From NCBI GenBank assembly GCA_017940265.1, contig JAGAYY010000025.1, positions 256,711 through 320,710 on the forward strand: a stretch of 64,000 nt of DNA. The letters are read 5' to 3'. Made by a program: the position numbers and the translations under genes. Origin of the DNA: Bacilli bacterium. Its GTDB lineage: Bacteria > Bacillota_I > Bacilli_A > RFN20 > CAG-826. Shown here one piece after another: positions 29,313 to 57,748 of this stretch. The notes beneath the pieces are model-generated. The model was not told the DNA's origin. It searched no databases and worked only from the letters and a program-made list of their open reading frames with translations. Numbering within the stretch: position 1 is the stretch's first letter; each line of letters begins with the position of its first letter.

Positions 29313-29355
29313 AAAATCTTTATCAATATTAAGGAAAAGACGGCAAAATTAGACC

Positions 29356-29417
29356 AAAAATCCCAAAAAATCCTTGAAAAATTGTCGGAATCCCTTATCC
29401 TATGAAGTAATATCAAG
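29356..29417 (+). promoter_or_regulatory. conserved intergenic element, copy 1 (phased A-tracts + TTGTCGGAATCCCTTATCCTATGAAGT)
   Basis: About 80% identical without gaps to 47711-47773; lies in the divergent control region. Confidence 0.5.
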
Positions 29418-36540: not shown

Positions 36541-36597
36541 CTCTTGTAGCGATCACCTCTTTTATACCGGATCTACTCTTCGATGAGACTACAAGAG
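36541..36597 (+). promoter_or_regulatory. late-region hairpin element S1
   Basis: 9-bp stem CTCTTGTAG/CTACAAGAG closing a loop that ends in CTACTCTTCGATGAG; TATAAT lies 4 nt downstream. Confidence 0.6.
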
Positions 36598-36715
36598 CTG
36601 TTATAATCCTTGCTCGATAAGATATGAAAGTTAGGAATTAAGGAGCGGGAGTATCAAAGTCAGCGCTCCTTATTTTACTTTCAAAATTCTATCGAGCCTT
36701 AAAACCAGAATGAAT

Positions 36716-36904
36716 ATGAAAATAAAACGTAAGAATTTCGCTGTTAAAGTAATTAGCGATGATCTAATTAAGAAACAAGTAGCGGCAGAAGTCAAGAAAA
36801 GTACAGATTGGATATTAAAAAATAAACCATCCATAAAATTCCTTCGACCTGCCACTAAGAAGAGTAGTTGGTTTAGTAAGAAGGAAGGAGAAAAAGATGA
36901 ATAA
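36716..36904 (+). CDS. leader-bearing small basic protein
   Basis: MKIKRKNFA (longest ORF starts at 36710); overlaps the terL start by 8 nt. Confidence 0.55.
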   Translation: MKIKRKNFAVKVISDDLIKKQVAAEVKKSTDWILKNKPSIKFLRPATKKSSWFSKKEGEKDE

Positions 36905-37538
36905 CCTAGATTTTATAGATCATTCCCCCAAGTTTGATCCTTTGGCAAGTGAAAGGGAAATAGATAATGCTTCCCTTGAAAAACAATACGCATCTTTAAG
37001 TGAAGAAGAAAAAAATTTAGTTTATGCTAAACTGAATGGCTATAGGTATATTCCACCAACTATACGTCAAATGTGGGAAGACACTTATTTTTTAGGTGGA
37101 GAAGCTTTTTACAATAAAGGTATTGCATTATTTGATTACTGGAAAAAAGTTCTTGAGGATGATATATTCAGTGGTCCTTTTTTTATAAAGAAGAACTATA
37201 TAGTAGCTAGTGGTGCTATAGGAATTGGCAAAAGTACGTTCGCTAGGTTATGCTGGATGGAGAATCACGCTAGAATGCTTTCAATGCGTCAGCCCTATAG
37301 TACTCTTAAGATTGTTCCAAAAACACTAAGTTATGTAATAATGCATAAATCTGAAGAAACTGCAATTGTAGAGTTTAAGAGATGGTTTTTAAGAGACGTT
37401 ATGGAATTATCTCCATTTTTTAAAAATGTCAAAAACGAAAATTTTAAATTCAAAGTAATTTGTAGCGGTCCAAGAGGTGTAGCAGGATTAGGTAGTGATA
37501 GAAATGTCGTCTATATTGGTAACAGTATAGATTATTAG
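36897..37538 (+). CDS. terL: terminase large subunit, N-terminal (ATPase) part
   Basis: Walker A VASGAIGIGKSTFA. The frame ends at TAG 37536-38, before any Walker B or nuclease domain. Confidence 0.85.
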   Translation: MNNLDFIDHSPKFDPLASEREIDNASLEKQYASLSEEEKNLVYAKLNGYRYIPPTIRQMWEDTYFLGGEAFYNKGIALFDYWKKVLEDDIFSGPFFIKKNYIVASGAIGIGKSTFARLCWMENHARMLSMRQPYSTLKIVPKTLSYVIMHKSEETAIVEFKRWFLRDVMELSPFFKNVKNENFKFKVICSGPRGVAGLGSDRNVVYIGNSIDY

Positions 37539-37755
37539 TGGGCAAAAACGGTGAAAGGTGTGATTCCTAATACCGTGCTAATTTAAAAGTTAACATATTT
37601 AAATAGTGTAACGAGTAGGCAGTGAAACTTTTATAAAGAATATAATCTGCCCAAGAGTGTCCGCCATCCTTCCTAGGAAGGATGAAAATGTACTCTGAAC
37701 TAATGCGAACAAGAAGTATTAGAACTACAAGATAAATAGCTTGTAGGATAACATA
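37539..37755 (+). mobile_element. structured insertion in terL: candidate ORF-less group I intron
   Basis: No ORF. Nested perfect helices: 37548-52/37572-76, 37618-22/37647-51, 37654-58/37692-96, 37665-73/37676-84 (9 bp), 37700-04/37718-22, 37725-31/37740-46 (7 bp). The boundaries are only the ORF limits, not mapped splice sites. Confidence 0.5.
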
Positions 37756-39060
37756 TTGGTTATTTTTTACCTAATAAGTGAATCTAATTTCTGGACCCCA
37801 TCTGAATTAGCTTTTGATAAGATTTCAACCGCCTTAATAAGATTTAAATCAAGATTTAACTCAGATACTCTACAAAATGTAGGACAAATTATCATTGACT
37901 CTTCTGCTAAAGGTGTACTAGATAGTACAAAGTGGTTTGTTGAGAATTCAGATCCTAAATATACCTGGTTTGATAGTCCTGCTCACTACGAAGTTAGGCC
38001 CCAAGATTATAAGGAGTCAGATGGAAAAACGTTTAAAGTATTTACCGGTAGTGGAAAATATCCGCCTCAAATATTGGCTAATGATGATAACCCTGACCCT
38101 TCTATATATGATCCCGATAAAATAATAAAAGTACCTATTCAATTATTACGCGACTATAAAAGAGCTTTAGTAAAAAGTTTACAGGATTATTCAGGTATTA
38201 GTACTGGAAGTACTGATTCTTTCTTCGGTGGAAATATTAAACACATTGTTGAATCTTCTACTATAATAAATAGAATTCCTGAAATAATAACCGTAGATTT
38301 TTATGATAAAACAGACAGGCTCTTAGATCATATATGGCCAATGTTATCTTTACTTCCTTATAAAACTCCAATTTGGTTAGGACTTGACCTTAGTTATGCT
38401 AAAGGAGGAGATAAAACAGGAATAGCTATATCTACATTTGAGGGCTGGGAAATAATAAACGGCACTAAACTTCCAAAAATGGCTGTTAGATTAATTGTAG
38501 CTATCCAAAATAAAGAAGGTCAAGAAATATCATTATTCCACATAGAACAGCTAATAATGGATTTACATAAGAGATTTAATCTAACAGTAAATGCAGATGC
38601 TGCATATTCTAGACAAATCTTACAAGCTTGCGATAGGGAAGGAATTAATAATAATGGTAGAATATCAACTGATATTGTTCCATGTGAGCCAGCACTTTAT
38701 ACAAAATCTGCAATAAATGGTGGACAAGTTCAACTAGTCATACATAAAAGATTTCAGAGAGAAGCTTATGATTTATATTATACAGAAAAAGGGAAAGTAG
38801 ATCACCCTAAAAAAGCTTCTATTAGTAATGACTTTGACAATCCACCAGGTAATCCAACTCCAGAAAAAGGAAGTAAGGACTGTTGGGATGCAGTATGTCA
38901 AAGCTTATATGGTATCAAACTAAGTATTGATGCCGGAGACGAATATGGAATGAATGGCGGATATTATAAAGAACTACAGGTAATGAATAAAGTGACTGAT
39001 GACCCAAGAGAAAGATCTAGAGAAATAGTTCAATCTATGATGGAGTCAGTATTCGATTAA
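37756..39060 (+). CDS. terL: terminase large subunit, C-terminal part (rest of ATPase + RNase H-like nuclease)
   Basis: ..VIFYLISESNFW.., nuclease acidic blocks WLGLDLSYAKGGDKTGIAI, VNADAAYS, KDCWDAV. The frame is open from 37747, and the 'start' at 37756 is a TTG artefact. Confidence 0.85.
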   Translation: MVIFYLISESNFWTPSELAFDKISTALIRFKSRFNSDTLQNVGQIIIDSSAKGVLDSTKWFVENSDPKYTWFDSPAHYEVRPQDYKESDGKTFKVFTGSGKYPPQILANDDNPDPSIYDPDKIIKVPIQLLRDYKRALVKSLQDYSGISTGSTDSFFGGNIKHIVESSTIINRIPEIITVDFYDKTDRLLDHIWPMLSLLPYKTPIWLGLDLSYAKGGDKTGIAISTFEGWEIINGTKLPKMAVRLIVAIQNKEGQEISLFHIEQLIMDLHKRFNLTVNADAAYSRQILQACDREGINNNGRISTDIVPCEPALYTKSAINGGQVQLVIHKRFQREAYDLYYTEKGKVDHPKKASISNDFDNPPGNPTPEKGSKDCWDAVCQSLYGIKLSIDAGDEYGMNGGYYKELQVMNKVTDDPRERSREIVQSMMESVFD

Positions 39061-39093
39061 AGTGTAATAAGGTAGTTATGCACTAAATAAACT

Positions 39094-40965
39094 ATGAAAT
39101 TGAAAACTAATAAACATAAGATTATGAATAAAGTAAATTGGAAAAATGAATTATCTAAACTTCGAGAATATATTGAAGTGAAACATATGACATTCGAGGA
39201 GGTTGGAAAAATATATAATAAGCCTAAAGGACAAATCGAAGTTGTATGTATAAGATATGGTATTAAATATGCCCATAGAAAAGTTTTCCCTTGGAGAGAA
39301 GATGAAATAAATACTGTCAAAGAGGAATTGCTTAAAGGTAAAACCTATGAAGAAATTTCTGAGTTACTACCAGGGAGAACCAAAAATGCGGTAAAGTCTC
39401 TTTATGAATATCATAGTAAGGAATTAAATTTAGTAAAACCTAAAAAACCAAATGGTATTACTAGTGAAAATGAAATAAAAATAAAGGAACTAGTATTAGA
39501 TGGTTATCCTGACCCTTGGATAAAACAATTAACTGGAGTATCTACTGATTGGATTTTAAAAGTAAAAGAAAAATACAATATTATTCAACCTAGTATAGAA
39601 GAACTACAAGATAAAGGTATATTTTTTACTAGTACTCCTAATATTACGCGTATAGAAACTGAATTGACTAAAGAAAAATTAATTTTATTACTGAATGACA
39701 ACGTTTCTATATGTGAAATGTCCAGAAGATATAGTATAAATATAAACACTATAAGAAATTTAGTAAGACGCCTTGGTTGGAAAGATGAAAAACTTGCATC
39801 TGCTAAAAATCTTAAACGCAAATTATATAAAGAGATACATGGGATAATAAATCCTACAGAAAAGCAACTTAATAAATCTTTCTTAAGCATATTTACTAGA
39901 GATTATATTCTAGATCTTCTCATAAGAAATGAATATAGTCTTAAGAAATGTTCATTAGAGCTTGATAATATAGATCCGAAATGTATATCTAGTGCTATAA
40001 AGAAATATAATATTGATATACCAGAAGATTTTGATTATAAAAGAAAATTTGGTCCATCATTTCAAAGTAGAATGGAGAACAATAGGAAAGAGTTTAGAGA
40101 ATATATGAATATTTATTTTCCGGATTATGAAATTATAGAAGATTATATTGGATCAGAAGAACATATAAAGCTAAGATGCAAAATACATCCGGAAGAAATT
40201 ATAGTAACCACTCCTTACTCTATAAAAACTATATTTACTTTACATGATGAAAACGGAAATATAATAGGAACTAAGCACCTCTGCAAAAAGTGTAAAGACC
40301 TAGAAGAAATCGCTAAAAAACTAACTGTTATTAAAAAAGAAATAGAAGAAACTTTTCCTGGTAAATTTGATCTTTCTGAATCAACTATAGAAAAAGTTTT
40401 TGTTTCTGAAAAATCTGGGCATAAATTAGTACTTACTAATATAAAATGCAATAAATGTGGTAATGTGTTTAAAGCAGATATTTATGACATTAGAAACAGT
40501 GGAGTTTGTAAGTTCTGTGATCTAAAATCTTCTGGAGAAATAAAAACAAAAACAGTTCTAGATAGACTTGGGATAAGCTATACAGAACAAAAATTAAACA
40601 ATCATGCAGTTCCCAAAGAAATAAGATCAATGGGTATATTTATAGATTTTTGTTTGGAGTATAATGGAAAAGAAATATGGATTGAATATAATGGTTCTCA
40701 ACATTATAAGTTTTCCACTAAATTTCATCAGAATATGGATGAATTTAAAAATAATATTCTACGTGATCTTTATGAGAGAAAATATTGTGAAGAGAATGGA
40801 ATACTTCTTATAGAAATACCATATACTTTCGATACTATAGATAAAATCCAAAATCTCTTACAGAAGGTAATTATTGATGGTCAGGATATAAATACTATCA
40901 TTGACTATAAACCTTTCTATGAGAAGATTAATAAACTTGGTGGTATATATGCAAATAATACGTAA
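39094..40965 (+). CDS. free-standing homing-endonuclease-like protein (multi-HTH + Zn-ribbons + PD-(D/E)XK/Vsr-like C-terminus)
   Basis: At least 5 HTH-like modules (e.g. MTFEEVGKIYNKPKGQIEVVCIRYGI; VSICEMSRRYSININTIRNLVRRLGW). CKKC/CNKCG..CKFC. C-terminus SSGEIKTKTVLDRLGI..FIDFCL..IWIEYNGSQHY. Markedly more AT-rich than terL. Confidence 0.6.
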   Translation: MKLKTNKHKIMNKVNWKNELSKLREYIEVKHMTFEEVGKIYNKPKGQIEVVCIRYGIKYAHRKVFPWREDEINTVKEELLKGKTYEEISELLPGRTKNAVKSLYEYHSKELNLVKPKKPNGITSENEIKIKELVLDGYPDPWIKQLTGVSTDWILKVKEKYNIIQPSIEELQDKGIFFTSTPNITRIETELTKEKLILLLNDNVSICEMSRRYSININTIRNLVRRLGWKDEKLASAKNLKRKLYKEIHGIINPTEKQLNKSFLSIFTRDYILDLLIRNEYSLKKCSLELDNIDPKCISSAIKKYNIDIPEDFDYKRKFGPSFQSRMENNRKEFREYMNIYFPDYEIIEDYIGSEEHIKLRCKIHPEEIIVTTPYSIKTIFTLHDENGNIIGTKHLCKKCKDLEEIAKKLTVIKKEIEETFPGKFDLSESTIEKVFVSEKSGHKLVLTNIKCNKCGNVFKADIYDIRNSGVCKFCDLKSSGEIKTKTVLDRLGISYTEQKLNNHAVPKEIRSMGIFIDFCLEYNGKEIWIEYNGSQHYKFSTKFHQNMDEFKNNILRDLYERKYCEENGILLIEIPYTFDTIDKIQNLLQKVIIDGQDINTIIDYKPFYEKINKLGGIYANNT

Positions 40966-41434
40966 CTTTAAGTGTTCGGCCTGTGGAGAATGCTGCCGAC
41001 ACATATCACACGTTCTTCCTGAGTATGACATCGGGAATGGGACTTGTTGCTGGCTAGATCAGAGCACTAATCTTTGTCGAATCTACCAAAAGAGGCCATT
41101 GATCTGTCGTGTGAAAGAATATTGGCAGCAAATTCTCAGGCCGGAAGGAATAAGTTGGGAAGATTGGTGCCGTGAAAATTATAAAGCTTGTGCGAGGATG
41201 AAGAAGAAAACAAACATAATCCAGGCTATCTTATCTATTTCAGAGGGATTAGATAAGAACAAAGATTATGGGGATGATAAGGTCTCTATAACTTGGCAAC
41301 CTAATCCCGGAAGATGGTGTGTTAATATAGGGGACTTTGAGTTTGGAACCCTGACAGAACAATATCTTACCCAACTCCCAGAAGATAAAGTGATGGAGAT
41401 CTGGGAAAGACTAAATAAAAAAGACCAGACTTAA
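40949..41434 (+). CDS. YkgJ/CxxCxxCC-family zinc/iron-chelating protein
   Basis: MQIIRNFKCSACGECCRH..C..CRIYQKRPLICR; start at ATG 40949 (longest ORF starts at 40901). Confidence 0.7.
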   Translation: MQIIRNFKCSACGECCRHISHVLPEYDIGNGTCCWLDQSTNLCRIYQKRPLICRVKEYWQQILRPEGISWEDWCRENYKACARMKKKTNIIQAILSISEGLDKNKDYGDDKVSITWQPNPGRWCVNIGDFEFGTLTEQYLTQLPEDKVMEIWERLNKKDQT

Positions 41435-41547
41435 TACGTCTGGCTCCCTTGGGTTTTAAATCCCATAACCTTAGTACAGAGACCTATAATCTCTGGTACT
41501 CTCGGATCTTTCTTACATATATAGGGTTCCTGAGACGATCCAAATTT

Positions 41548-41590
41548 CCTCATGCGTCTTCTGGTGACTACTCTTCGATGAGACATGAGG
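41548..41590 (+). promoter_or_regulatory. late-region hairpin element S2
   Basis: 7-bp stem CCTCATG/CATGAGG closing a loop that ends in CTACTCTTCGATGAG; TATAAT lies 6 nt downstream. Confidence 0.6.
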
Positions 41591-41845
41591 AACAATTATA
41601 ATAAACTTAAAAATATGATTACAGGAGAAACTACCTTATGTGTTTTGCGTCACGGGAATACATACGCAACAATCCTCAAGACTACAGAAGATACTTATGA
41701 TGTCTATAGAGGAAATGACTTAATGTATGAAGAAGTAACATACACCGAAGCCTGCGAGTTCTACAAAGCTTTTATGGCTACTAAATCACTAAACCATTCA
41801 GAAGAGATTATATGTATAACAAAGAAACAACCCATATTATCCTAG
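41585..41845 (+). CDS. hypothetical protein
   Basis: 86-aa ORF; alternative start at 41615, because ATG 41585 sits in the S2 stem. Confidence 0.55.
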   Translation: MRNNYNKLKNMITGETTLCVLRHGNTYATILKTTEDTYDVYRGNDLMYEEVTYTEACEFYKAFMATKSLNHSEEIICITKKQPILS

Positions 41846-42498
41846 GAACAGCTCACCTAGGTTCTACCCCAGGAAAATGTAGTCCAGATTCTAAATTCAG
41901 AGAAGCAGTATGGAGTAGAGAAATTATTGCTGAACTTGCCCCTGCCCTTGAAAGTTATGGTTGGACGGTACATGTTGATTATCCCTCAATGCTTCCCGGT
42001 CCTGCTCTCAAAGACAAAGACCCAAAGAAAGAACAATCCAAAGAACTTCAGTATAGGGTTGGATTCGTTAACGGTCTTTGCAAACGACATGGCAAAGAGA
42101 ATTGTATCTACGTGTCAATTCATGTTAATGGAGCTGGAAATGGAGGGAAATGGTTAGGAGCTAGAGGATGGAGCGCTTATACTTCTCCGGGGCAAACAAA
42201 AAGTGATATCCTAGCCTCTGACTTATACTGGGCCGCTACCAAAAATATTGTCCCTGATTACTCTAAAACTGGTGAATGGGTCGGAAGTCAGAAACCTATC
42301 AGGACAGATCTCTCAGATGGTGACCCCGATCTAGAAGAGAGATTATATGTTCTTACTAAAACCCTCTGTCCTGCCGTCCTAACCGAAAATCTCTTCCAGG
42401 ATAATAAGGACGATGTCAGTTTCCTTACCTCAGATCTAGGCCGACAATTAATCCTGAGGACTCATGTAGAAGGAATATTACGATTCTTAGAACGATAA
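41812..42498 (+). CDS. N-acetylmuramoyl-L-alanine amidase (Amidase_3 type endolysin)
   Basis: IILGTAHLGSTPGKCSPD.., YVSIHVNGAGNGG, GWSAYTSPGQTKSD, AVLTENLFQDNKDD. Confidence 0.9.
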   Translation: MYNKETTHIILGTAHLGSTPGKCSPDSKFREAVWSREIIAELAPALESYGWTVHVDYPSMLPGPALKDKDPKKEQSKELQYRVGFVNGLCKRHGKENCIYVSIHVNGAGNGGKWLGARGWSAYTSPGQTKSDILASDLYWAATKNIVPDYSKTGEWVGSQKPIRTDLSDGDPDLEERLYVLTKTLCPAVLTENLFQDNKDDVSFLTSDLGRQLILRTHVEGILRFLER

Positions 42499-42820
42499 TT
42501 ACAAGATGATAGATTTCCATTTTCTCTCGCGCCAGGGGAACCGGAAAGGGAGCCCCTTAATGCCTATCTGCCGATGACGGCATTAAGGCCGCTACGCGGA
42601 AGGCTAAAGCCATTGAACTCCTCTCCCTAATTCCAATTTTTCTAATTTTTTGGTGCCAAAATAATATATTAAACCAATTACAGTAAAAATTGCGTTATAA
42701 ATAGAAATTTCACGCCTCAGAGAAGCTCAAATCCTAATATGTGATGTAGAGAATCGGGCTTCCCCGATTCCCTTGGCCGGTTTATTGGCCAAGGAATTAA
42801 CTTTAAATATAAAACATATT
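42499..42820 (+). promoter_or_regulatory. structured upstream/leader region of SF2-like paralog 2
   Basis: GC-rich island with a 10-bp hairpin (42555-64/42579-88). Block 42708-42737 is conserved with 16655-16686. Two perfect 8-bp hairpins (42751-70, 42771-94) lie just before ATG 42821. Confidence 0.45.
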
Positions 42821-44839
42821 ATGGATATAGTTAAATTAGAAAATGGAAAATCTTTAATAAGAGTTCCAGAAAATATAAGGTACATGAATGATTGGAAAGA
42901 ATTTGATTTCGATTTATTTCATGGACCTTATATTATTGACAAACAAATCCCAGGTTGCGGATTTACAGAGTATTGTCTTACTTCAGGAGATAATCTTATA
43001 CTATGTTCTCCTCGTAAGATTCTTCTAGAAAATAAAGCTAATCAACATCTAGGGGAAGTCTATTATGCTAAGAATGAGATGGAAACGGATCTTAGTATTG
43101 ATAGAGATTCTACTAAAAAGGTTAAGAAGTTATCTAGGGAAACTAAGAAAGAGGATATACATGCTGTTCTTGAAGCTATCGAAAAAATGTATAAAGGGTT
43201 GGATGAGTACATAGAAGATAGAATTAAGAATAGAAAACCTATTAAAATATTGGTTACCTATGATTCTTTCAAACATATCAAGAATTATCTTTTAAAAAGA
43301 AGTAGTCCAGAGCTAGATATCCTAGGATCATTTAAAATAGTGATAGATGAATTCCAGTCGGTTTTTGTAGATTCACACTTTAAACCAACAGTAGAATTAG
43401 ATTTTGTTAATCAACTTTTGGGGTTATCTAATAACATTTGTTTTGTCTCAGCGACTCCTATGCTAGATAAATACCTTAAGCAGGTTGATTATTTCAAGGA
43501 TCTACCATATTTTGAATTTGATTGGGAAACTTTAGATCCGGGCAGAGTTATTAAGCCTGAACTTAAGGTTAGAAAAGAAAGATCTGTTTATGGTAAAGCA
43601 GTTAATATTATTCAAGAGTACCTAGATGGGAAATTTGCTGTTCTTGCAGATCCTACCTCAGGTAAATTAGTTAAAAGTACAGAGGCCGTATTTTATGTAA
43701 ATTCTGTCTTAGGAATTATTAAGATAATAGGAAAAGCTGGTCTTACACCAGATCAGGTTAATATTTTATGTTCTAATACTCCACAAAATCAGAAGAAGAT
43801 TAGAAAAATGTTAGGCAAGGGATTTGTGATTGGTTCAGTTCCCTTGAAAGGGCAGCCACATAAGATGTTTACATTCTGTACTCGAACTGTTTACTTAGGA
43901 GCAGACTTCTACTCAATGTGTGCTAGAACCTTTATATTTAGTGATGCTAATGTGGACTCTATGGCTATTGATATTTCTCTCGACTTACCACAGATTCTAG
44001 GTCGACAGAGGCGTATAGAAAATCCATGGAAGAATCATGCAGAATTCTACTTCAAAACTATTGGAAAAACTAAAGAAGAAACTATAGAAATATTTAGTAA
44101 ACGTCTTGATGAAAAACTAAGGGAAACCTATAGACTTCTGAGAGCTTTTGAAGGAGCAGTAGAGGAAGATAAATCGGCACTATTGAGGAAATATACAAAA
44201 GATATTGCTTCATCTAATTATATGGATGATTATGTATCGATAAGTTTTGTCAATGGTGAGAAAATACCAGTTAAGAACAATCTTGTATACATCTCTGAAC
44301 AACGAGCTTATGAAATACAGCAAATAGATTATAAAGATAGATTCTCAGTTTTTAGTTCTATACAGAAAGAAGGATTGAAACTAGATAGATTAAGTAAAGC
44401 AATAGGAAGGTTAAGGGAGACTTCTATTCCTTTCTCAGCTCGACTAAAATATTTATGTGAATCTACCGAGTATTCTGATGAGGAAAAGAAAATAATAGCG
44501 CAACAAGCTTCGGAGAGCTTTGATAGATATTATAATCTCCTAGGACCTGAAAGATGTAAGGCGCTAAGATATAATATTACTGATCTTAAAAAAGAAATAG
44601 CCGATATTTCTATACCAAAAGAAAAGATAAGTCAAACTTTTCAGAGTAATTTTTTGGTTGGTGCTAGATATTCTAATGTTCAGGCTAAAGAAATTATTAG
44701 AAAAATTTATTCTGAACTTGGTATGAATAAATCACCTAAGGCAACTGACCTAAACAACTATTTTGTTTTTAAGAAAGTAAAATTTCCTGATTCAACCGGA
44801 AAAATGATAAACGGTATTGAAATTCTAGGAACTAAATAA
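42821..44839 (+). CDS. SF2 helicase-like protein, paralog 2 (Walker A Lys replaced)
   Basis: PGCGFTEY, CSPRKILLEN, VIDEFQS, VSATP, QILGRQR. Collinear with 14547-16589. The track start at 42773 is a TTG inside a hairpin. Confidence 0.8.
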   Translation: MDIVKLENGKSLIRVPENIRYMNDWKEFDFDLFHGPYIIDKQIPGCGFTEYCLTSGDNLILCSPRKILLENKANQHLGEVYYAKNEMETDLSIDRDSTKKVKKLSRETKKEDIHAVLEAIEKMYKGLDEYIEDRIKNRKPIKILVTYDSFKHIKNYLLKRSSPELDILGSFKIVIDEFQSVFVDSHFKPTVELDFVNQLLGLSNNICFVSATPMLDKYLKQVDYFKDLPYFEFDWETLDPGRVIKPELKVRKERSVYGKAVNIIQEYLDGKFAVLADPTSGKLVKSTEAVFYVNSVLGIIKIIGKAGLTPDQVNILCSNTPQNQKKIRKMLGKGFVIGSVPLKGQPHKMFTFCTRTVYLGADFYSMCARTFIFSDANVDSMAIDISLDLPQILGRQRRIENPWKNHAEFYFKTIGKTKEETIEIFSKRLDEKLRETYRLLRAFEGAVEEDKSALLRKYTKDIASSNYMDDYVSISFVNGEKIPVKNNLVYISEQRAYEIQQIDYKDRFSVFSSIQKEGLKLDRLSKAIGRLRETSIPFSARLKYLCESTEYSDEEKKIIAQQASESFDRYYNLLGPERCKALRYNITDLKKEIADISIPKEKISQTFQSNFLVGARYSNVQAKEIIRKIYSELGMNKSPKATDLNNYFVFKKVKFPDSTGKMINGIEILGTK

Positions 44840-45005
44840 ACAAGAATATTGTCTATCCCGAAAGGGCTGGGCAATATTTCTTTTAACCATGTACAAAATA
44901 TGAAAAGAAATTTTTGGGGCACAAGACCGGGTAGTGCTCGCAGAATAATTAAGAAACCCAAATCCCCGGCTATCAAAGATTCTGGGGTATTAATGTCTAT
45001 TGATT

Positions 45006-45524
45006 ATGAAGGTAATACGACAAAATAAGGTTATTATCGATGCTCTTAAGGGGATTGATACAACGAAAATTAACTTGGATGATCGAGAATTTCATTTTAT
45101 AGACGAAGTAACTCAGGGGCCAGGTTATACTAAGGTTTGTATTTCTGGTGGTCTTAATGGAAGAGGTATCTGGTCTAACTATTTCGAAGTCCTGGCTAAA
45201 GTTATGTTTCAGATAGAACTTAGGTTTCCTGACGCTTTTGTTGTATCACTGGAGAATGATACTGCGGATGATATTTTCTATCTCTACATAGGTATTCCGA
45301 ATGATAATGAGGAACGTATTTTCTCTAAGGCATCCGGACGAGAAACGGTACCTGACTCTATCGTTAAGAAAGTTAAAGCAGGTGAAGGAGTAATTCATCA
45401 GTATAAAGGAAAATGGAGAATTGTTAGTATGAAAACTAACCCTCCCACTTTTTGGAACGCTGAGTATGAGACTAGGGAAAAAGCTGAATCTGCGCTTAAA
45501 GCATATCAAGCAAATAAAAGATGA
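45006..45524 (+). CDS. hypothetical protein
   Basis: ATG 45006 (MKVIRQNKV..); the track start at 45000 is a TTG. Confidence 0.65.
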   Translation: MKVIRQNKVIIDALKGIDTTKINLDDREFHFIDEVTQGPGYTKVCISGGLNGRGIWSNYFEVLAKVMFQIELRFPDAFVVSLENDTADDIFYLYIGIPNDNEERIFSKASGRETVPDSIVKKVKAGEGVIHQYKGKWRIVSMKTNPPTFWNAEYETREKAESALKAYQANKR

Positions 45525-46882
45525 TAACATTTAAAGAAAAAACAACAGATCTCCTAGACGAAAAAGACTTCCTCCCTAAGGCTATAGATAGTTTTTTCAA
45601 GTTTAGGGGAAGGGAATTGTACTCAGAACCAATCTCCTCTACAAAGCCGTCGGGAACAAAATTGGCCGGACTCTCTAAGGGCAAATTTTCTACTCCGGAG
45701 GTTAAGGGGATAATTAAGGAAGTAACTATAATACATCCAGCTTCTCACCGTGAATATAAGGCTTCGGAGTTTGTGTATACAGGAAAACCAAAGGACTCTA
45801 CTCTTGATTTAGGTTTCAAGGTATCGGTGAAAGAAGGCTTAATAGTACCTGAAGAATTTGAATACTATAATTTCCTGATGTACACTTTAGGAAAATACAC
45901 AGGAGATTATGACTACAAATTTGTTATGGTGGGCTCTAATCCCCCTAAGCCAATTATCACTATTCCAAACTCAAAGACTGGATGGATAAATCTAGTAAGG
46001 GCATTGACTGAATTTTGTGTTTCCCTTAAGTTATTCTTCGGGATTAAGTATTATGTTTGGTTAGTCCCCGAGGAAGTTCCAGAAGCAAAGAATTTCTCAG
46101 GACTTGCATCTTTTATACCTACTCTTACTTCACTGGTCTATAAAACAATAGTACTCCCTATCCTTAAAAAACGTGTAGCTCTTAAGTGGGAAAAATCATT
46201 AACTACTAAATACTCTTCTTCTCTTCTCCCTAAGCTTCTCAAGAAAATAAAAGGAGATTGGGGAGATAAACTGATATTAGGGGATTGTACGCAGCAGTCA
46301 TATTATCTCAACCTAACTAAAGGAAAACAAGCAGCAGAGGTTAGGAAGGTATTTACGAACAAGAAATTCCTAGAAGATGAAGGGATAGATCCAGAGAGAA
46401 GAAGATGTCCAGTTGATTGGTGGGCATTTGCAGCTTCGAAAGAAAAAGATCTGATAATGATTTCTGACCTAGATCCTGTTCCTGCTATTTTCCATGAGGT
46501 TGGACATTTCTTAGCTAACAATGAAAATCTATTAGGTCCCATTCAGAGAGCTTCCCATCGTGGAGTATTCAGTGATGGATTCGTTTCACTAGCCTCATTT
46601 CTTTTAGGTACTGGAGGGGGTATAGCTGGAAGCCCGGTAGGAGAAATATCAGGGTGGGTAGTTTCTATACTTCTTAAGTTCCCTACCTTGTGCACAGAAT
46701 TTATGGCTTCGTGGTATGGACTCCAGCTTATGAAGTCGTTAGGTGCTACTGATAAGGACCTGACAGAAGCTAAGTATGCATTTAAGACAGCATTCTCTAC
46801 TTATGTACTATCTGCCTTAGGAAAAGCTGGCAATTCTGGATATGGTCGTCTATTAGGTGAAGGAATTAAACGATATAAATAA
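45521..46882 (+). CDS. leader-bearing HExxH zinc metalloprotease with C-terminal membrane segments
   Basis: MITFKEKT..; PAIFHEVGHFLA; hydrophobic LASFLLGTGGGIAGSPVGEISGWVVSILL. Confidence 0.7.
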   Translation: MITFKEKTTDLLDEKDFLPKAIDSFFKFRGRELYSEPISSTKPSGTKLAGLSKGKFSTPEVKGIIKEVTIIHPASHREYKASEFVYTGKPKDSTLDLGFKVSVKEGLIVPEEFEYYNFLMYTLGKYTGDYDYKFVMVGSNPPKPIITIPNSKTGWINLVRALTEFCVSLKLFFGIKYYVWLVPEEVPEAKNFSGLASFIPTLTSLVYKTIVLPILKKRVALKWEKSLTTKYSSSLLPKLLKKIKGDWGDKLILGDCTQQSYYLNLTKGKQAAEVRKVFTNKKFLEDEGIDPERRRCPVDWWAFAASKEKDLIMISDLDPVPAIFHEVGHFLANNENLLGPIQRASHRGVFSDGFVSLASFLLGTGGGIAGSPVGEISGWVVSILLKFPTLCTEFMASWYGLQLMKSLGATDKDLTEAKYAFKTAFSTYVLSALGKAGNSGYGRLLGEGIKRYK

Positions 46883-46883
46883 T

Positions 46884-47678
46884 ATGGTTACAATCAAACA
46901 AGGAAGCAAGGGACCAGAGGTAACTCGTCTTGCTAAACTCCTCGGTCTTTCCCCAAGGACCGTATGTGATAAGGAGATGTCTGATGCTATGTGTGCCTAT
47001 CAGAAAGCTTGGGGACTCACAGCGGATGGTGTTTTTGGGTATAAATCTTGGAAACATATCTTGATCGCTGAGAGATATTCAAAAAATAAGTCTGGGAAAA
47101 TAGTTGACTCAGATTATGAATTATTTGCCTGGCTCCTGGGATGTGAGGCTATAATGATTAAAGCTTTTGTATCTGTAGAGTCTGGAGGTTCTGGTTTTCT
47201 TCCTTCTGGTAGACCTAGGATTCTTTTTGAGTCTTATCAATTCTGGAAGAACCTTAAGGCTGAAGGAATCGACCCCAACAAATATCTCCCCGAGTATTCT
47301 GACGTTATAACCACTAAATGGATCAAGAATTACAAGGGAGGTGAAGGAGAATGGACTCGGATGGAAAAAGCTAGAAAGATATCTCAGGGGGCAGCTAATA
47401 AATCAGCTTCTTGGGGTATGCTTCAGATTATGGGATTCAATTATTCTTTATGTGCCGAACCCTCTATTACTAAATTTGTTGAGGATATGGGAAAAGACGA
47501 ATTCACACAACTTAGCCTGGGAATTGAATTTATGAGATCGGCAGGAATAGTTCCATACATGATCTCTAAAGATTTCACTAAGCTAGCTAAGAAGTATAAT
47601 GGTCCGGGTTATGCTGCCAACAAGTACGATTTGAAGCTTAAAAACGCATATTACAGCCTAAAATCGAAGAAAAACTAG
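46884..47678 (+). CDS. peptidoglycan-binding domain + N-acetylmuramidase (DUF3380-type)
   Basis: PG_binding_1-like KQGSKGPEVTRLAKLLGL..YQKAWGLTADGVFG. Muramidase blocks VSVESGGSGF, ILFESYQFW, SWGMLQIMGFNY, KYNGPGYAANKYD. Confidence 0.85.
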   Translation: MVTIKQGSKGPEVTRLAKLLGLSPRTVCDKEMSDAMCAYQKAWGLTADGVFGYKSWKHILIAERYSKNKSGKIVDSDYELFAWLLGCEAIMIKAFVSVESGGSGFLPSGRPRILFESYQFWKNLKAEGIDPNKYLPEYSDVITTKWIKNYKGGEGEWTRMEKARKISQGAANKSASWGMLQIMGFNYSLCAEPSITKFVEDMGKDEFTQLSLGIEFMRSAGIVPYMISKDFTKLAKKYNGPGYAANKYDLKLKNAYYSLKSKKN

Positions 47679-47710
47679 TTATTTTGGCATATTAACTGTC
47701 ATTTTGGCCG

Positions 47711-47773
47711 AAAAATCCCAAAAAATCATCAAAAATTTGTCGGATACCCTTATACCATGAAGTTAAACATCGA
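47711..47773 (+). promoter_or_regulatory. conserved intergenic element, copy 2
   Basis: AAAAATCCCAAAAAATC..AAAAATTTGTCGGATACCCTTATACCATGAAGT; about 80% identical to 29356-29417; directly upstream of the portal gene. Confidence 0.5.
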
Positions 47774-47826
47774 TATTTTCCTCCTTCCCCGAGTAATATC
47801 GATTCTATAAATTGAAATTATTACTT

Positions 47827-49488
47827 ATGAAGAAGAGTGAAAATATGATTCAAAAGATGTTCGGATCATTCGCAATCGGATCAAGTCGTGTACCAATCCG
47901 AAGTAATGTATATCGAACAGGTGGAGGGTATTCGGCAATTGGCGGAACTGGTGGAGCGTCGATTTTCGATAGCTTTGACAGAAAATCTCCACTTCTCGGA
48001 AATGCTAGTCCGAGTAATCGTATCTCTGGGTATATCGATCGAATTGGAGAGCTCAAGGGATACCAACTTTTAGATATCTCGAAGCTTGCAACTAATTTCT
48101 TCGCCGACTATGTAACGAATTTCTTAGTCGATGGAAATGGACAGCAACTCGTGACTATATTAAATGAAGAGGATGATTCAACCGACGAACAGGTGACTGA
48201 GCGTATTAACAACATCCTCTCGAAAGACCTGAAAATTCTAGACTGGATTCGAGATCACTTACAGGATTATATATTCTATGGTGAGTACTTCGGAATGTTA
48301 CAGAAATCTCAGGATGAAACTGGTCATACGAAGTTCAGAATTGAGGAACTGCATGACCCGATTTGTGTAATTACCAAGAAAAAGCGCAATTCTGATGGTG
48401 AGATGGAAGAAACTTATCTTGCCAGAGGTGAAGATGGTGGTATTTACGAGATTCCAAGAAATGAGATCGTCTATATTGCCTCTCAGAACTTGCGCTTAAT
48501 AAATGACCTCTCTGACGAATGGAAAGAGAATGAGAAGAAACAGAAAAAACTAATCCTTAAGGGTGAGAGCAATCGAGATAAGGTACTTAAGTCAGAATCT
48601 TATATGACCTCTGAACCTCTCCTGTATGCTCTAATCCTGAAGGTTAAGGAGTTAGTTATTAAAGAGTTATTAGTTAGCCTGATCTCTCTTCGTGACTTAT
48701 CTTCAGTACAAATTTTTCTCCTTCAGTTCGATAAATCCATTCCCCTAGAAAGTGCTAATGAATTATGTGCTAGAGCCACTAAGTTAGCTAATAATACAAA
48801 CGAACTTGGTAGCTTTCTGTCCAGTCAATTTGATGTGATTTCCTTTATTGAAAACACCTTGACCCAGAGTGCTAAATTCGTTCCTGACTATAACTCTACT
48901 CTGGGAGGTAAGAATTCAATGCTCCCCTTAGATAAGCTCACTGATAAACTCTTAGATATTATGCAGACCCTTGATCAATGTAAGGGTAATATCTTAGGTC
49001 CCCTTGGTCTTCCTACTACTATGATGGATTCAACCTCTGGTAATAAATGGCAAGTCCTTCAACAATCAGAACGTGCTAATTCAAGAGTTACCGGATTTAT
49101 GTCAGGGATTAAGGATTCTATGATTTCCTTAGTTTGCACGATCTATCGAACCCTGTATAATGATGAACTTGATCCTGGACTTATTAAACTTCATATCGCT
49201 GAGAAAACGAGCGTAGAGTATAATAATCAGATCAACCAATCAGAATCAGTAAGTGGTTTAGTTCAGGGTATAACTGGTATTGTTCAGAATGCAATTCAGA
49301 CTCTTGAAACTGCTGCCCCACTCATTGATGGAAAAGCGTTCTTGAGTTATATTCAGACACTTATCAAGAACATAGACTCTAATACCGGTGACTTAATAAC
49401 AGAGGAATCACTAGAATCATACCTTAAGTTATTACAGGCTAAGGTTGACTCACAGTACGAACAATTAGGATTAACACCAGATGAATAA
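47827..49488 (+). CDS. putative portal protein
   Basis: About 550 aa. First gene of a T4-like head module (portal, small proteins, protease, scaffold, MCP). Called from position and size only. Alternative start at 47845 gives MIQKMFG, which matches the leader. The track start at 47812 is a TTG. Confidence 0.55.
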   Translation: MKKSENMIQKMFGSFAIGSSRVPIRSNVYRTGGGYSAIGGTGGASIFDSFDRKSPLLGNASPSNRISGYIDRIGELKGYQLLDISKLATNFFADYVTNFLVDGNGQQLVTILNEEDDSTDEQVTERINNILSKDLKILDWIRDHLQDYIFYGEYFGMLQKSQDETGHTKFRIEELHDPICVITKKKRNSDGEMEETYLARGEDGGIYEIPRNEIVYIASQNLRLINDLSDEWKENEKKQKKLILKGESNRDKVLKSESYMTSEPLLYALILKVKELVIKELLVSLISLRDLSSVQIFLLQFDKSIPLESANELCARATKLANNTNELGSFLSSQFDVISFIENTLTQSAKFVPDYNSTLGGKNSMLPLDKLTDKLLDIMQTLDQCKGNILGPLGLPTTMMDSTSGNKWQVLQQSERANSRVTGFMSGIKDSMISLVCTIYRTLYNDELDPGLIKLHIAEKTSVEYNNQINQSESVSGLVQGITGIVQNAIQTLETAAPLIDGKAFLSYIQTLIKNIDSNTGDLITEESLESYLKLLQAKVDSQYEQLGLTPDE

Positions 49489-49729
49489 AGAAAAACATGG
49501 ACAAGCCGTAGGAGTAGCAACAACTTTAACAGGAGCGGGACTTATGGCTGCAGGAAAACTCGCTGGCGCAAAGAAATTCCAAGAATATGCTGGTGAGGGT
49601 ATTAAGAAACATGCTAAGACCTTAAAAGTAGCCGGTCCTATTCTCACAGCTGGGGGAATTGGATTGACTGGGGTTAGTACTTATAAACTCAAGAGAAAGA
49701 AGAAAGATGATAGTTCTGAGAAGAAGTAA
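49481..49729 (+). CDS. small Gly/Ala-rich (glycine-zipper-like) protein
   Basis: VGVATTLTGAGLMAAGKLAGA..LTAGGIGLTGV. Confidence 0.6.
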   Translation: MNKEKHGQAVGVATTLTGAGLMAAGKLAGAKKFQEYAGEGIKKHAKTLKVAGPILTAGGIGLTGVSTYKLKRKKKDDSSEKK

Positions 49730-50036
49730 ATCATTCTCCTCTCCTGAACAATCCCAAGAAGTTACATCTCGTGATCTTTTGGTCGAGCAAATGAAACAGC
49801 AACGTCAATTACTTCAGACTCAGAGGTTGCGCGAAAAATTACAGGCTCAAGAACGGCGCGACATGATGAAAAATCTTAGGGAGGCTCAGAAGGATAGTGA
49901 CGAAGACAAGAACGACCAGATGAAAAATCAGGTTAAGATAAACAAGATACAAGCAGAACAGAATGATGGCGCCAAAAATGTAAGCCTGTATAAAACTCGC
50001 GCAAAAACTGTTCCCCCTGTATCAATGAAAGTCTAA
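49707..50036 (+). CDS. leader-bearing basic coiled-coil protein
   Basis: MIVLRRSKSFS. Confidence 0.6.
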   Translation: MIVLRRSKSFSSPEQSQEVTSRDLLVEQMKQQRQLLQTQRLREKLQAQERRDMMKNLREAQKDSDEDKNDQMKNQVKINKIQAEQNDGAKNVSLYKTRAKTVPPVSMKV

Positions 50037-50043
50037 AGAAAAT

Positions 50044-50139
50044 ATGGAACTGAAAGAGAAAACATTTACCAAGGAAGTTGAGAATGGACCACAGGAAACC
50101 GATGAGTCCAAAATCTATAATCCACTCCGCCCATGGTAA
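50044..50139 (+). CDS. possible 31-aa leader-bearing peptide (below ORF-track cutoff)
   Basis: Own translation MELKEKTFTKEVENGPQETDESKIYNPLRPW*; its stop overlaps the next ATG. Confidence 0.3.
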   Translation: MELKEKTFTKEVENGPQETDESKIYNPLRPW

Positions 50140-50324
50140 TCAAGCGTAAAAAGAAGAAAGTATCGGGCGAAGAACTACGTGATGTTCTCTCCGATCATGT
50201 CCTGGAACCTACCACCGACGTACTTAATAAGGTCGAAGAATCTAAGGTAGGTCAAGTAGCACCCGTCAAGAAAAAGACGAGGATGGTACGAAACTTTATT
50301 ACTGGAGTCAAGGCATACTCCTGA
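50133..50324 (+). CDS. leader-bearing small protein
   Basis: MVIKRKKKKVS. Confidence 0.5.
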   Translation: MVIKRKKKKVSGEELRDVLSDHVLEPTTDVLNKVEESKVGQVAPVKKKTRMVRNFITGVKAYS

Positions 50325-50338
50325 TAAAAGAAACAATT

Positions 50339-50650
50339 ATGTATATACGTAGAAAAGCATTCTCAGTAGCAACGATTGATGGTGAGGAAAAGTTATTCTC
50401 TACTAAGGATCGTGCCAAGAAAGCAGCTGAAGGAACTGCCGTAGCTGGTGGTGTAGCTGCTGTTGGTCTTGCTGGTGCTCATAAACTGGGTGATAAGATT
50501 AAGAATAAGATTGCCAAAGAAACTGAAGAAGCTGGTTATAAATCAAGAAAGAATCAGAAACTTGAGAAGGTAGCCGAAAAACTTCAGAAACCAGGTGAAA
50601 AAGTATCTAAAGGTCTTGCCAAGGTTCTTAAGAGAGTTACTAAGCGATAA
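50339..50650 (+). CDS. leader-bearing Gly/Ala-rich protein
   Basis: MYIRRKAFS..EEKLFS..; GTAVAGGVAAVGLAGA. Confidence 0.65.
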   Translation: MYIRRKAFSVATIDGEEKLFSTKDRAKKAAEGTAVAGGVAAVGLAGAHKLGDKIKNKIAKETEEAGYKSRKNQKLEKVAEKLQKPGEKVSKGLAKVLKRVTKR

Positions 50651-50660
50651 ACACCTATAA

Positions 50661-50706
50661 TCCTAGGGAGAACATAATGGTTCTATGATTCGATTCAACC
50701 CTAGGA
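50661..50706 (+). promoter_or_regulatory. late-region hairpin element S4 (divergent copy)
   Basis: 8-bp stem TCCTAGGG/CCCTAGGA. The loop ends in CTA-TGA-TTCGAT-TCA, so the 3-bp mini-stem flanking TTCGAT covaries with CTC..GAG of S1-S3. Confidence 0.4.
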
Positions 50707-50722
50707 ACTAATTACACAAAAA

Positions 50723-50977
50723 ATGCCTATGGAAAAACTAAAAGAAATTTGGCACAAGATCCTAGCCTACATCTATGATATGGAGTATGGAGTTGGCAAG
50801 ACCCATTACATCATACTTAGCGTATTCATAGGTTTTCTGTTTGGGGCTTGTCCTGTAGTAGCTTTCATGCTCGGATACAATTACGAGCGATCAAAGGAAG
50901 GTAAGGCTGATATAAAATCTGCCCTAACCTATTTTGCAGCAGCCTTTGTAGGTTGTTTTGTTAGACACATAATCTGA
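50723..50977 (+). CDS. small membrane protein
   Basis: 84 aa, two hydrophobic helices. Confidence 0.6.
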   Translation: MPMEKLKEIWHKILAYIYDMEYGVGKTHYIILSVFIGFLFGACPVVAFMLGYNYERSKEGKADIKSALTYFAAAFVGCFVRHII

Positions 50978-51063
50978 GGTACTGGGGAGGGGAGAACAAA
51001 ACCTATTCTCTCTCTTCATCAGTTTTCCCCTACCCTATCCTCATTTCAAAAACTAAAACCAAT

Positions 51064-51741
51064 ATGATACACTCAAGTGACCCATTTAATGATCCAGAGT
51101 TCAAGAAACAGATCCTGGCGGGTGAAGGCGTGGATCAATTGGACGATGATAATGTTGAGGACGAAATTAAAGGTATGTTAACTAATGCCCCTGTCCTCCC
51201 CAGTAGCGCAAAAAATATAATCCTAGACTCTTCTGCAATCGTTAAATCAGAGAAAGACAAGAAGGCAGCTGAATTTAATCTTGCTCTTAATTCGATTATT
51301 ACCCGATACAATGAGGAGTACGGAACCGACATAAATATAGATTTCGGAAATATCTCTAATACTTTGGTGGCTGTTTCAGATCCCGAGAAGAGAAAAGTTT
51401 TAGAGTTATATGTATCCGAAGTCTTCAAATCAATAAAACCTATTCTCTTACTACATCTCCTAAATAGGTTAGTCCTGTGTTTAGATTATATCTTAGATCC
51501 GAAGAGAATGTTATCGGGCAATGAACTTAGTCTTCCCGATATGTTCTTAGCGGTAGAAAAACTCCAGGGCTACATATTAAACCTGCAAGAGATAATCGAA
51601 ACCAGTACTATCAAAGATTCTGATGCTATCCTTGAGAAGATTGCATCCGATAAAGACGACTCTACCATAAATTCGCCCGAGTCTAAGAAAGTAGTGGATG
51701 AATTTATGCAGCTCTTTAAGAGAGATCAGGGAATAGAATAA
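51064..51741 (+). CDS. hypothetical head-module protein
   Basis: 225-aa acidic ORF between the portal and the protease. Confidence 0.65.
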   Translation: MIHSSDPFNDPEFKKQILAGEGVDQLDDDNVEDEIKGMLTNAPVLPSSAKNIILDSSAIVKSEKDKKAAEFNLALNSIITRYNEEYGTDINIDFGNISNTLVAVSDPEKRKVLELYVSEVFKSIKPILLLHLLNRLVLCLDYILDPKRMLSGNELSLPDMFLAVEKLQGYILNLQEIIETSTIKDSDAILEKIASDKDDSTINSPESKKVVDEFMQLFKRDQGIE

Positions 51742-51821
51742 GATATAGACCAACTTCTGTCATAAATCATATATTTTGCCGCGTCCCCGAGTTGCGATAA
51801 CTAGGGGTCGAAACCTTAAAA

Positions 51822-51874
51822 GTCTTGGAGTGAATCTGTAATATGGACTCTACTCTTCGATGAGGCTCCAAGAC
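51822..51874 (+). promoter_or_regulatory. late-region hairpin element S3
   Basis: 9-bp stem GTCTTGGAG/CTCCAAGAC closing a loop that ends in CTACTCTTCGATGAG; upstream of the protease-scaffold-MCP genes. Confidence 0.6.
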
Positions 51875-51943
51875 CTAATTCAATATCAAACAGAATGCTC
51901 ATTAAACTGTGAGCTGATTTTTAACTTAATAAATAATTAATTT

Positions 51944-56075: not shown

Positions 56076-56163
56076 ACAAGATATATAATCACATGCGGCT
56101 TTAATAAAATGTCCGGGGAAAATTCCCTGGACTCAGCCACATACAAAACACATAATCATAATT

Positions 56164-57624: not shown

Positions 57625-57692
57625 ACTGTCAATAACAATTCTTGACCCCTCTAGGAAACTAGCGGGTCCTTAAGATAAAGAATTAAATCAAT

Positions 57693-57748
57693 AGAGAGGA
57701 ATTACACTGTCTTTTAACCGGAGAGTGTGTTCCTCTCTTACTTTTATA
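57693..57748 (+). terminator. intrinsic terminator after the MCP gene
   Basis: 9-bp stem AGAGAGGAA/TTCCTCTCT (57693-57738) with inner ACACT/AGTGT, followed by TACTTTTAT. Confidence 0.6.

Follow-up and report, generated by a model that had tools for sequence, protein, structure and literature searches.

A conserved three-way junction repeated ahead of phage genes, and its possible role as a tRNA-like processing signal

The stretch of DNA considered here, 64,000 nucleotides of contig JAGAYY010000025.1 (hereafter the window), carries in the gaps between its genes a short element that recurs with the same TTCGAT core inside a stem whose sequence differs from copy to copy. The locus raises the question of what such an element is, in which strand and molecule it folds, and why it is repeated ahead of genes. 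According to RNA folding and a covariance model, the element is a conserved sense-strand three-way junction of ~45-55 nt. As to its role, we hold with about even confidence that it is an anticodon-less tRNA mimic, i.e. a tRNA-like processing signal akin to the t-element of plant mitochondria.

Fold, conservation and strand

The window holds four copies of the element, designated S1 to S4, all on the + strand and all between open reading frames (ORFs) (Table 1). An initial annotation, made from the sequence alone, had reported an identical 15-mer in three copies and a divergent fourth copy, and both observations stand: CTACTCTTCGATGAG is found on the + strand at 36573 (S1), 41568 (S2) and 51850 (S3), and S4 keeps TTCGAT with the flanking CTC..GAG changed to TGA..TCA. 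The ORF positions likewise confirm, for all four copies, that they sit in gaps between genes. The perfect outer stem assigned to each copy is real, with the correction that the stem of S2 comprises 9 bp (TTCCTCATG/CATGAGGAA, 41546-41592) and not 7. What had been drawn as an open loop of 29-39 nt turned out to be folded instead: it contains a covarying hairpin (P2) and a 3-bp helix (P3), which together with the outer stem (P1) form the three-way junction. The initial annotation had recognised neither these inner helices nor the resemblance to tRNA in geometry and 3' tail.

P1 is an 8-bp stem of free sequence with near-invariant UCC/GGA ends, closed at the junction by a wobble position: 31 copies have U.G there, 7 have C.A and 5 have U-A, the first two being isosteric wobble pairs. 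P2, of 3-9 bp, is a hairpin with a conserved G-A...U-C base and a loop of 3-15 nt of variable sequence, and directly 3' of it lies a UA linker that is invariant or nearly so. P3 adjoins the 3' strand of P1 and is capped by UUCGAU, replaced by UUCAAU in 4 copies and by UUUGAU in 1. The flanks are conserved as well. The 5' flank is A/U-rich, poor in G and frequently ends in UA. Outside the helix, a single-stranded 3' tail opens at +1 with A (82% of 47 distinct flanks) or G (12%, and 94% for the two together), has C at +2 in all 47, U or A at +3, and A at +4 in 87%; the leader that follows is A/U-rich and has no clear Shine-Dalgarno (SD) sequence. The CTAATT previously pointed out after S3 and S4 belongs to this conserved tail of the family.

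Relatives of the window were collected with the probable capsid gene (56164-57624) as query, which yielded 80 IMG/VR contigs, many of 250-400 kb, at 75-86% amino-acid identity. A descriptor scan of these loci returned 85 more instances of the element, all on the gene strand, with many P1 sequences, 8 variants of P3 and a covarying P2. A covariance model was then seeded with 20 distinct copies. It scored the window copies at 51.8-64.3 bits (E 3e-13 to 4e-17), and the best other scores in the rest of the 64-kb window, at most 13.7 bits, were the reverse strands of the same four sites. Across four batches of loci the model found 84, 53, 7 and 45 matches, amounting to more than 180 copies with about 50 distinct sequences. 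In the alignments 97.6-98.1% of helix cells pair, compared with ~70% after shuffling and at most 55% with slid partners, and both sides have changed in 14-15 of 16 pairs; these values are to be read considering that P1 and P3 pairing served to choose the seed copies and that the alignments of the hits are fitted to the model. P2, by contrast, pairs in 96-99% although it was never used as a selection criterion. The covariation across relatives is overwhelming, which bears out the suggestion that compensatory changes reflect a single-stranded structure; the check proposed at the time, a covariance model searched against related phage contigs, thus gave both conservation and covariation. The family is absent from Rfam 15, which gave 0 matches over the entire window at the gathering threshold; with E<=10 over S3 and S4 no match fell on the elements, and those elsewhere were chance matches to miRNA and snoRNA models only. 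Literature searches brought up no phage precedent.

The wobble pairs reveal the strand. In P1 and P2 of 46 distinct copies there are 23 G.U pairs and 0 A.C pairs, indicating that the structure forms in the sense strand, and all copies of the family lie on the gene strand. The initial annotation had left the choice between RNA and single-stranded DNA; the folding molecule is most likely RNA, and the G.U/A.C asymmetry argues against a symmetric cruciform as well as against a hairpin in the template DNA strand.

Table 1. Copies of the element in the window and the hairpins that follow two of them (P1 to P3, helices; scores are those of the covariance model)
Feature	Position	Strand	Details
S1	36542-36596	+	P1 36542-36549/36589-36596; extra pair C36541-G36597 possible
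S1, inner parts		+	Junction C36550.A36588; P2 within 36551-36575, UA junction at its end; P3 36576-36578/36585-36587; loop TTCGAT 36579-36584; 54.7 bits, and fold
S1, 3' tail	36597-36601	+	GCTGT: R then C, as tRNA positions 73-74
Hairpin after S1	36641-36672	+	AAGGAGCG/CGCTCCTT and T-rich run; between S1 and ATG 36710; read from sequence
S2	41547-41591	+	P1 41547-41554/41584-41591; extra pair T41546-A41592
S2, inner parts		+	Junction C41555.A41583; P3 41571-41573/41580-41582; loop 41574-41579; 51.8 bits
S2, 3' tail	41592-41596	+	ACAAT; ATG 41615 is 23 nt downstream
S4	50661-50706	+	P1 50661-50668/50699-50706; junction A50669.A50698; 54.5 bits
S4, inner parts		+	P2 GAAC/GTTC; P3 TGA/TCA 50686-50688/50695-50697; loop 50689-50694
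S4, 3' tail and flanks	50707-50711	+	ACTAA; stop codon 10 nt upstream; ATG 50723 is 16 nt downstream
S3	51823-51873	+	P1 51823-51830/51866-51873; extra pair G51822-C51874; 64.3 bits
S3, inner parts		+	Junction wobble T51831.G51865; P3 51853-51855/51862-51864; loop 51856-51861
S3, 3' tail	51874-51878	+	CCTAA
Terminator-like hairpin after S3	51897-51914	+	GCTCATTAAACTGTGAGC then TGATTTTTAA; between S3 and ATG 51944; terminator scan; relation to element uncertain

Genomic setting and likeness to tRNA

The element lies between co-directional genes. The upstream stop codon is usually 6-30 nt before P1, and the next ATG usually comes 16-36 nt beyond its 3' strand, most often at 22-23 nt. In the window the gaps from S1 and S3 to their ATGs (36710 and 51944) are longer, 113 and 70 nt, and each holds a hairpin with a T-rich tail. 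The one after S1 was not called by the terminator scan; it may act as a terminator or attenuator, or it may form the 3' terminus of a small RNA, and its relation to the element is uncertain. Presence of the element differs between close relatives. Of 17 loci with an orthologue of window gene 47827-49488, 14 have the element upstream of it, whereas the window itself does not. The element also sits at mosaic boundaries where the flanking genes differ on each side. Searches of Pfam, PHROGs and PDB sequences with the genes downstream of elements gave nothing beyond an endolysin and an HNH-like ORF, so that among the earlier gene labels the amidase is backed by the endolysin match, and terL, protease and scaffold are unsupported.

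The phages that carry the element fall into two lineages. The first is represented by the window and its large relatives, for which no close cultured relative was found: megablast of the 36-42 kb region against GenBank phages gave no match, and the best that tblastn of the probable capsid protein found were E. coli phages, with 31% identity and 40% of the query aligned. The second emerged in IMG/VR from a core-pattern scan with TCTACTNTTCGATNAG, all figures from which refer to the matches listed; it consists of contigs of 20-52 kb that carry the element in near-identical architecture (GCCTGTAC...GTACAGGC), in an early operon. With genes for an integrase, a CI-like repressor, Sak4, SSB and HNH, they are temperate phages. 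In this lineage the spacing to the ATG is exactly 22 nt despite four different downstream genes. An exact 19-mer of the temperate copy occurs, among GTDB representatives, only in Bacteroides ovatus, Bacteroidaceae and Bacteroidales assemblies, where the covariance model confirmed the matches, and this distribution indicates Bacteroidales as the host clade. Considering that the two lineages, jumbo and temperate, seem to have unrelated gene content and nevertheless share the element, its partner is probably not a phage product; the pattern points to a factor shared through the host.

Several features of the element recall tRNA. P3, the wobble and P1 contribute 3, 1 and 8 nt, respectively, to an unbroken 3' strand, from which we infer a coaxial stack of 12 bp, the acceptor-plus-T-stem length of tRNA. 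This length is what RNase P and other tRNA enzymes measure. The UUCRA loop at the end of the stack resembles the T-loop consensus, and the R-C of the tail matches the discriminator and C74 in tRNA genes of the phages themselves. Of 29 distinct tRNA genes from the two lineages, 20 have A, 6 have G and 3 have T at N73; all 29 have C at N74, and the full CCA is usually absent (e.g. AC followed by gaaag, or GC followed by taattg). The tRNA genes also occupy similar positions, often 22-34 nt upstream of a same-strand ATG. The temperate locus L128 has three ORFs in a row with similar leaders, one of them behind the element, one behind a T-arm hairpin (GTAGG-TTCGACT-CCTAC) and one behind a tRNA. Locus L046, which has no element at all, carries tRNA-Met and tRNA-Leu 34 nt before its orthologue of window gene 47827-49488, and in L092 one copy of the element is followed by a 12/13-bp hairpin with the 7-nt T-loop TTCGACT, 5 nt before an ATG. 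The element would therefore count among tRNA-like processing signals by its acceptor/T-arm stack of ~12 bp with a T-loop motif (on a short T stem and with a loop of 6 nt), by its tRNA-gene-like 3' flank and by the positions at cistron borders that it shares with tRNA genes. It falls outside true tRNAs, defined by the RF00005 cloverleaf, having three helices only and a P2 loop that varies from 3 to 15 nt.

If the element is such a signal, P2 would take the place of the D arm and the stack of P1, wobble and P3 would mimic the top half of a tRNA. Embedded in the long polycistronic transcripts of the phage, it would be recognised and cut at its borders by the host's tRNA-processing enzymes, with RNase P cutting on the 5' side and RNase Z, or a different nuclease that matures tRNA 3' ends, possibly cutting after the discriminator. 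The downstream cistron would thereby be released, either with a short A/U-rich leader or with the folded element kept as its 5' cap, and true tRNA genes appear to serve the same role at equivalent positions in related phages. From what is generally known of the bacterial enzymes, the invariant C74 may aid RNase P binding or block RNase Z. Among the roles listed in the initial annotation it is the processing site, possibly combined with a stabilising 5' structure, that we favour.

The closest parallel is found in plant mitochondria, where t-elements, tRNA-like folds, are thought to direct the RNase P and RNase Z cuts that make mRNA ends (PMC1920247). T-elements, like mitochondrial tRNA punctuation and like the element described here, are non-canonical tRNA-like folds in polycistronic transcripts that lie at mRNA borders, are exchangeable with tRNA genes and contain a T-arm-like motif. 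Unlike t-elements, the element occurs in Bacteroidales phages, has no anticodon arm and a P1 of 8-9 bp, and shows a T stem of 3 bp with a 6-nt loop instead of GGTTCRANYCC. In eukaryotes, the mascRNA of MALAT1 and MEN-beta is a tRNA mimic inside a longer transcript that acts as a cleavage signal for RNase P and RNase Z; unlike the element, it is nuclear, has a full cloverleaf-like fold and sets the 3' end of the upstream RNA, to which CCA is then added. RNase P also accepts non-tRNA substrates, such as the C4 RNA of P1/P7, the CI RNA of P4 and certain operon mRNAs, which present acceptor-stem-like helices with an RCCA-type tail. These, in contrast, are single cases, usually with the full CCA, and do not form a repeated, covarying family of three-way junctions capped by a T-loop. 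Among phages, repeated intergenic modules with hairpins ahead of genes are represented by the promoters of the N4 virion RNA polymerase and by the PeSL cassettes of T4-type phages. The N4 hairpins have 5-7-bp stems and 3-nt loops in the template DNA strand, and PeSLs combine a terminator-like stem with a sigma-70 early promoter; neither accords with the wobble asymmetry and three-way junction of the element.

A second structured RNA stands close to the element in the temperate Bacteroides phages. The DUF2693-FD RNA (RF02926) was matched with 76-77 bits in L137 (3549-3597), L128 (5249-5297) and L228 (4246-4294); it shares a non-coding stretch with the element and precedes it by ~280 nt. Like the element it is short (49 nt), forms a three-way junction and is followed by ACTA (ACTAT), and its 7-bp P1 abuts a 5-bp stem with a 7-nt loop, giving 7+5 = 12 bp. 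Its loop and junction sequences are different and contain no UUCGA, and the RF02926 model gives no match on the TTCGAT element, so the likeness is one of architecture and tail only. The DUF2693-FD RNA may belong to the same functional class as the element; the main text of the paper that introduced the motif contains no discussion of it.

The tRNA-like sequences of L128 have peculiarities of their own. The tRNA at 6909-6991 of L119/L128 is 83 nt long and is assigned a 4-base anticodon (tgtg) by ARAGORN, implying an anticodon loop of 8 nt; its variant in L165 is called tRNA-Arg. The perfect T-arm GTAGG-TTCGACT-CCTAC ends a ~190-nt non-coding stretch of L128 (6437-6625), 27 nt before an ATG. A 9-bp long-range pairing (AAAAGGTAG/CTACCTTTT) is possible in this stretch, for which neither ARAGORN nor Rfam gives a tRNA call.

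Alternative explanations

A number of observations weigh against a tRNA-like processing signal. ARAGORN finds no tRNA in the window and the Rfam tRNA model misses the element; its T stem has 3 bp and its loop 6 nt, compared with 5 bp and 7 nt in tRNA; and because the P2 loop is not conserved, a contact between D-loop and T-loop at the elbow is unsupported. Position -1 is A in 61% of elements and T in most tRNA genes, and a -1/+1 pair can extend P1 in about one third of the copies, indicating that the length of 12 bp is not strict. The C tail may be a general property of tRNA genes and not one of these lineages, given that C74 is also present in 9 of 10 tRNA genes sampled from unrelated phages. 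Other genes of the window, the probable capsid gene included, are preceded by plain hairpins and short leaders, and the L001-L048 clade has a single copy, which comes after a gene and ahead of a terminator-like hairpin and lacks a same-strand ORF downstream. The short T arm, the lack of an elbow contact, the differing -1 position, the loose length of P1, the misses by tRNA models and the plain hairpins elsewhere together make a serious rival of a generic 5'-UTR or intercistronic stabiliser or translation element, which we nonetheless regard as unlikely. Such an element would block decay that depends on the 5' end, or position ribosomes or S1 on a leader that has no SD sequence, through a host or phage protein bound to junction and loop and with no part for tRNA enzymes. 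The narrow spacing to the ATG, which peaks at 22-23 nt and is fixed at 22 nt in the temperate lineage, is in line with this, as are the unrelated hairpins 15-26 nt before the ATGs of other window genes and the A/U-rich, SD-less leaders expected in Bacteroidales hosts. A stabiliser, however, offers no account of the tail (R at +1, invariant C at +2), of the UUCRA loop and the 12-bp stack, or of the replacement by tRNA genes, and a binding partner encoded by the phage is unlikely since the jumbo and temperate phages seem unrelated in their genes.

Roles in transcription fare less well. A processive antitermination RNA of the put/nut type, a nascent fold that, by itself or together with a factor, attaches to the elongating RNA polymerase and takes it past terminators in the long late operons, seems to us distinctly improbable. 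The hairpins with T-rich tails 12-45 nt downstream of S1, S3 and the L002-type copy, and the location inside long co-directional gene blocks, speak for it, but most copies are directly followed by a ~22-nt leader and an ORF, with no terminator between them. Put and nut sites, moreover, lie just downstream of promoters and not, like the copies of the element, only 6-30 nt past stop codons, and antitermination gives no reason for the tRNA-like tail or the exchange with tRNA genes. Least credible of all is a promoter, either with TTCGAT as -35 and a downstream -10 or as an N4-like DNA hairpin for a phage RNA polymerase. It was suggested by TATAAT, which in S1 and S2 indeed stands 17 nt after TTCGAT (TTCGAT-N17-TATAAT), and it could draw further on the AT-rich "TATA"-like sequence directly 5' of P1 in many copies and on the 60-nt promoter-like repeat (described below) that precedes window gene 47827-49488 where relatives carry the element. 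Over the 47 distinct flanks, however, no -10 box is conserved at a fixed distance; a sigma-70 scan found 59 sites against 64 expected and did not call the element; TTCGAT matches TTGACA at only 2 of 6 positions; and the promoter consensus of Bacteroidales, the host clade, is of another type. A template-strand hairpin of the N4 type would show A.C mismatches and not the 23 G.U and 0 A.C observed, a P3 of 3 bp would be unstable as DNA, the space between upstream stop codon and P1 is small, and it is the different 60-nt repeat that heads the + strand block and precedes gene 47827. We likewise strongly doubt two further identities for the element: a small self-cleaving ribozyme of a new type, and an intergenic mobile cassette with a structure that promotes its own spread. 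The element's small size, conserved junction and loop, several copies per phage genome, variable presence between close relatives and location at mosaic boundaries would suit such a role, and paralogues within a contig share P1 sequences (L052:893 with L092:2589, and L052:235 with L092:6429). The junction, on the other hand, is nearly all paired, and its 2-3 unpaired nucleotides leave little for a catalytic core; Rfam gives no match to a known ribozyme family, and mobility alone cannot explain the fixed orientation and start-codon spacing.

Several more specific candidates were tried and rejected. A hammerhead, suggested by the likeness of UUCGAUGAG to CUGAUGAG, is ruled out by the covariation of the 3 bases after UUCGAU with the 3 before it, which form P3. 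A riboswitch would have an expression platform, whereas most copies are followed by an unstructured ~22-nt leader only; sequestration of an SD sequence by the UCC/GGA ends of P1 fails because the element, ~23 nt from the ATG, is too far away. The P2 loops are unlike anticodon loops, which excludes a cryptic arm-less tRNA. An intrinsic terminator is incompatible with the A-C-W-A tail and the A-rich leader, and the terminator scan does not call the elements. The N4-type DNA hairpin promoter, finally, is at odds with both the three-way junction and the sense-only wobble pattern.

Neighbouring features and implications

Several other features of the window were recorded alongside the element. In relatives, the counterpart of window ORFs 36897-37538 and 37756-39060 (and of 1315-1668 and 1828-3372 in L021) is a single protein of 622-630 aa, for which the label terL is unconfirmed. 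Residues 1-196 of this protein align to 36897-37496 and residues ~198-630 to 37759-39054, so the window gene is interrupted by ~220 nt; Rfam detects no intron in the interruption. Directly after the split gene lies a 623-aa ORF (39094-40965) with PHROG matches to HNH/homing endonucleases and an N-terminal D5-like or Myb-like DNA-binding region. In temperate L128 an HNH ORF (5565-6131) is likewise situated just upstream of the element.

A 60-nt direct repeat (AAAAATCCCAAAAAATC...TTGTCGGA..CCCTTAT.C.ATGAAGT) is present at 29349-29408 and 47704-47763 with 82% identity. One site is the point at which the - and + gene blocks diverge and the other lies upstream of gene 47827, where relatives have the element or tRNA genes; the repeat is a candidate promoter region. 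Strong intergenic hairpins occur near the probable capsid gene and its neighbours, at 56093-56142, 57639-57664, 57694-57738, 42771-42794 and 50965-51053, and a GAAA-capped hairpin follows the stop codon of the probable capsid gene. The hairpin at 56093-56142 (z = -5.2) is followed by ACAAA and ends 21 nt before the ATG of the capsid gene; it does lack the TTCGAT core, as had been noted, and the geometry said to be similar proved to be a different structure from the element. Small ORFs of the late region (36710, 50339, 35269, 35573, 49707, 50133 and many in the related loci) begin with similar N-termini, among them MIILRxKxF, MYIRRKVFS, MIIKRK and MKYQVRRFS, which suggests a paralogous family or a shared N-terminal signal.

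Taking both lineages together, we put forward tentatively, and with somewhat less than even confidence, a broader proposal: jumbo phages (~250-400 kb) and unrelated temperate phages of gut Bacteroidales would punctuate their polycistronic transcripts with mini-tRNA mimics that are interchangeable with tRNA genes, thereby hijacking host RNase P and RNase Z. The DUF2693-FD RNA would be of the same class, and the excised RNAs of ~50 nt might act in trans, e.g. as decoys or competitors for enzymes that bind the acceptor/T domain. Processing signals of the tRNA-like kind are known from organelles and eukaryotic long non-coding RNAs; what would be new is a three-way-junction form that has no anticodon, recurs in the operons of phages and changes places with their tRNA genes.

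If this interpretation is correct, the element constitutes a structured RNA family new to Rfam with strong covariation and a testable mechanism, and phages, not organelles alone, would be able to punctuate their transcripts for mRNA maturation by means of tRNA genes and their mimics. It would offer an explanation beyond codon usage for the tRNA genes scattered among the late genes of large phages, and a first functional lead for the orphan DUF2693-FD motif. For Bacteroides, where post-transcriptional control is poorly understood and SD-independent translation makes the definition of 5' ends important, it would also provide a compact, portable processing signal.

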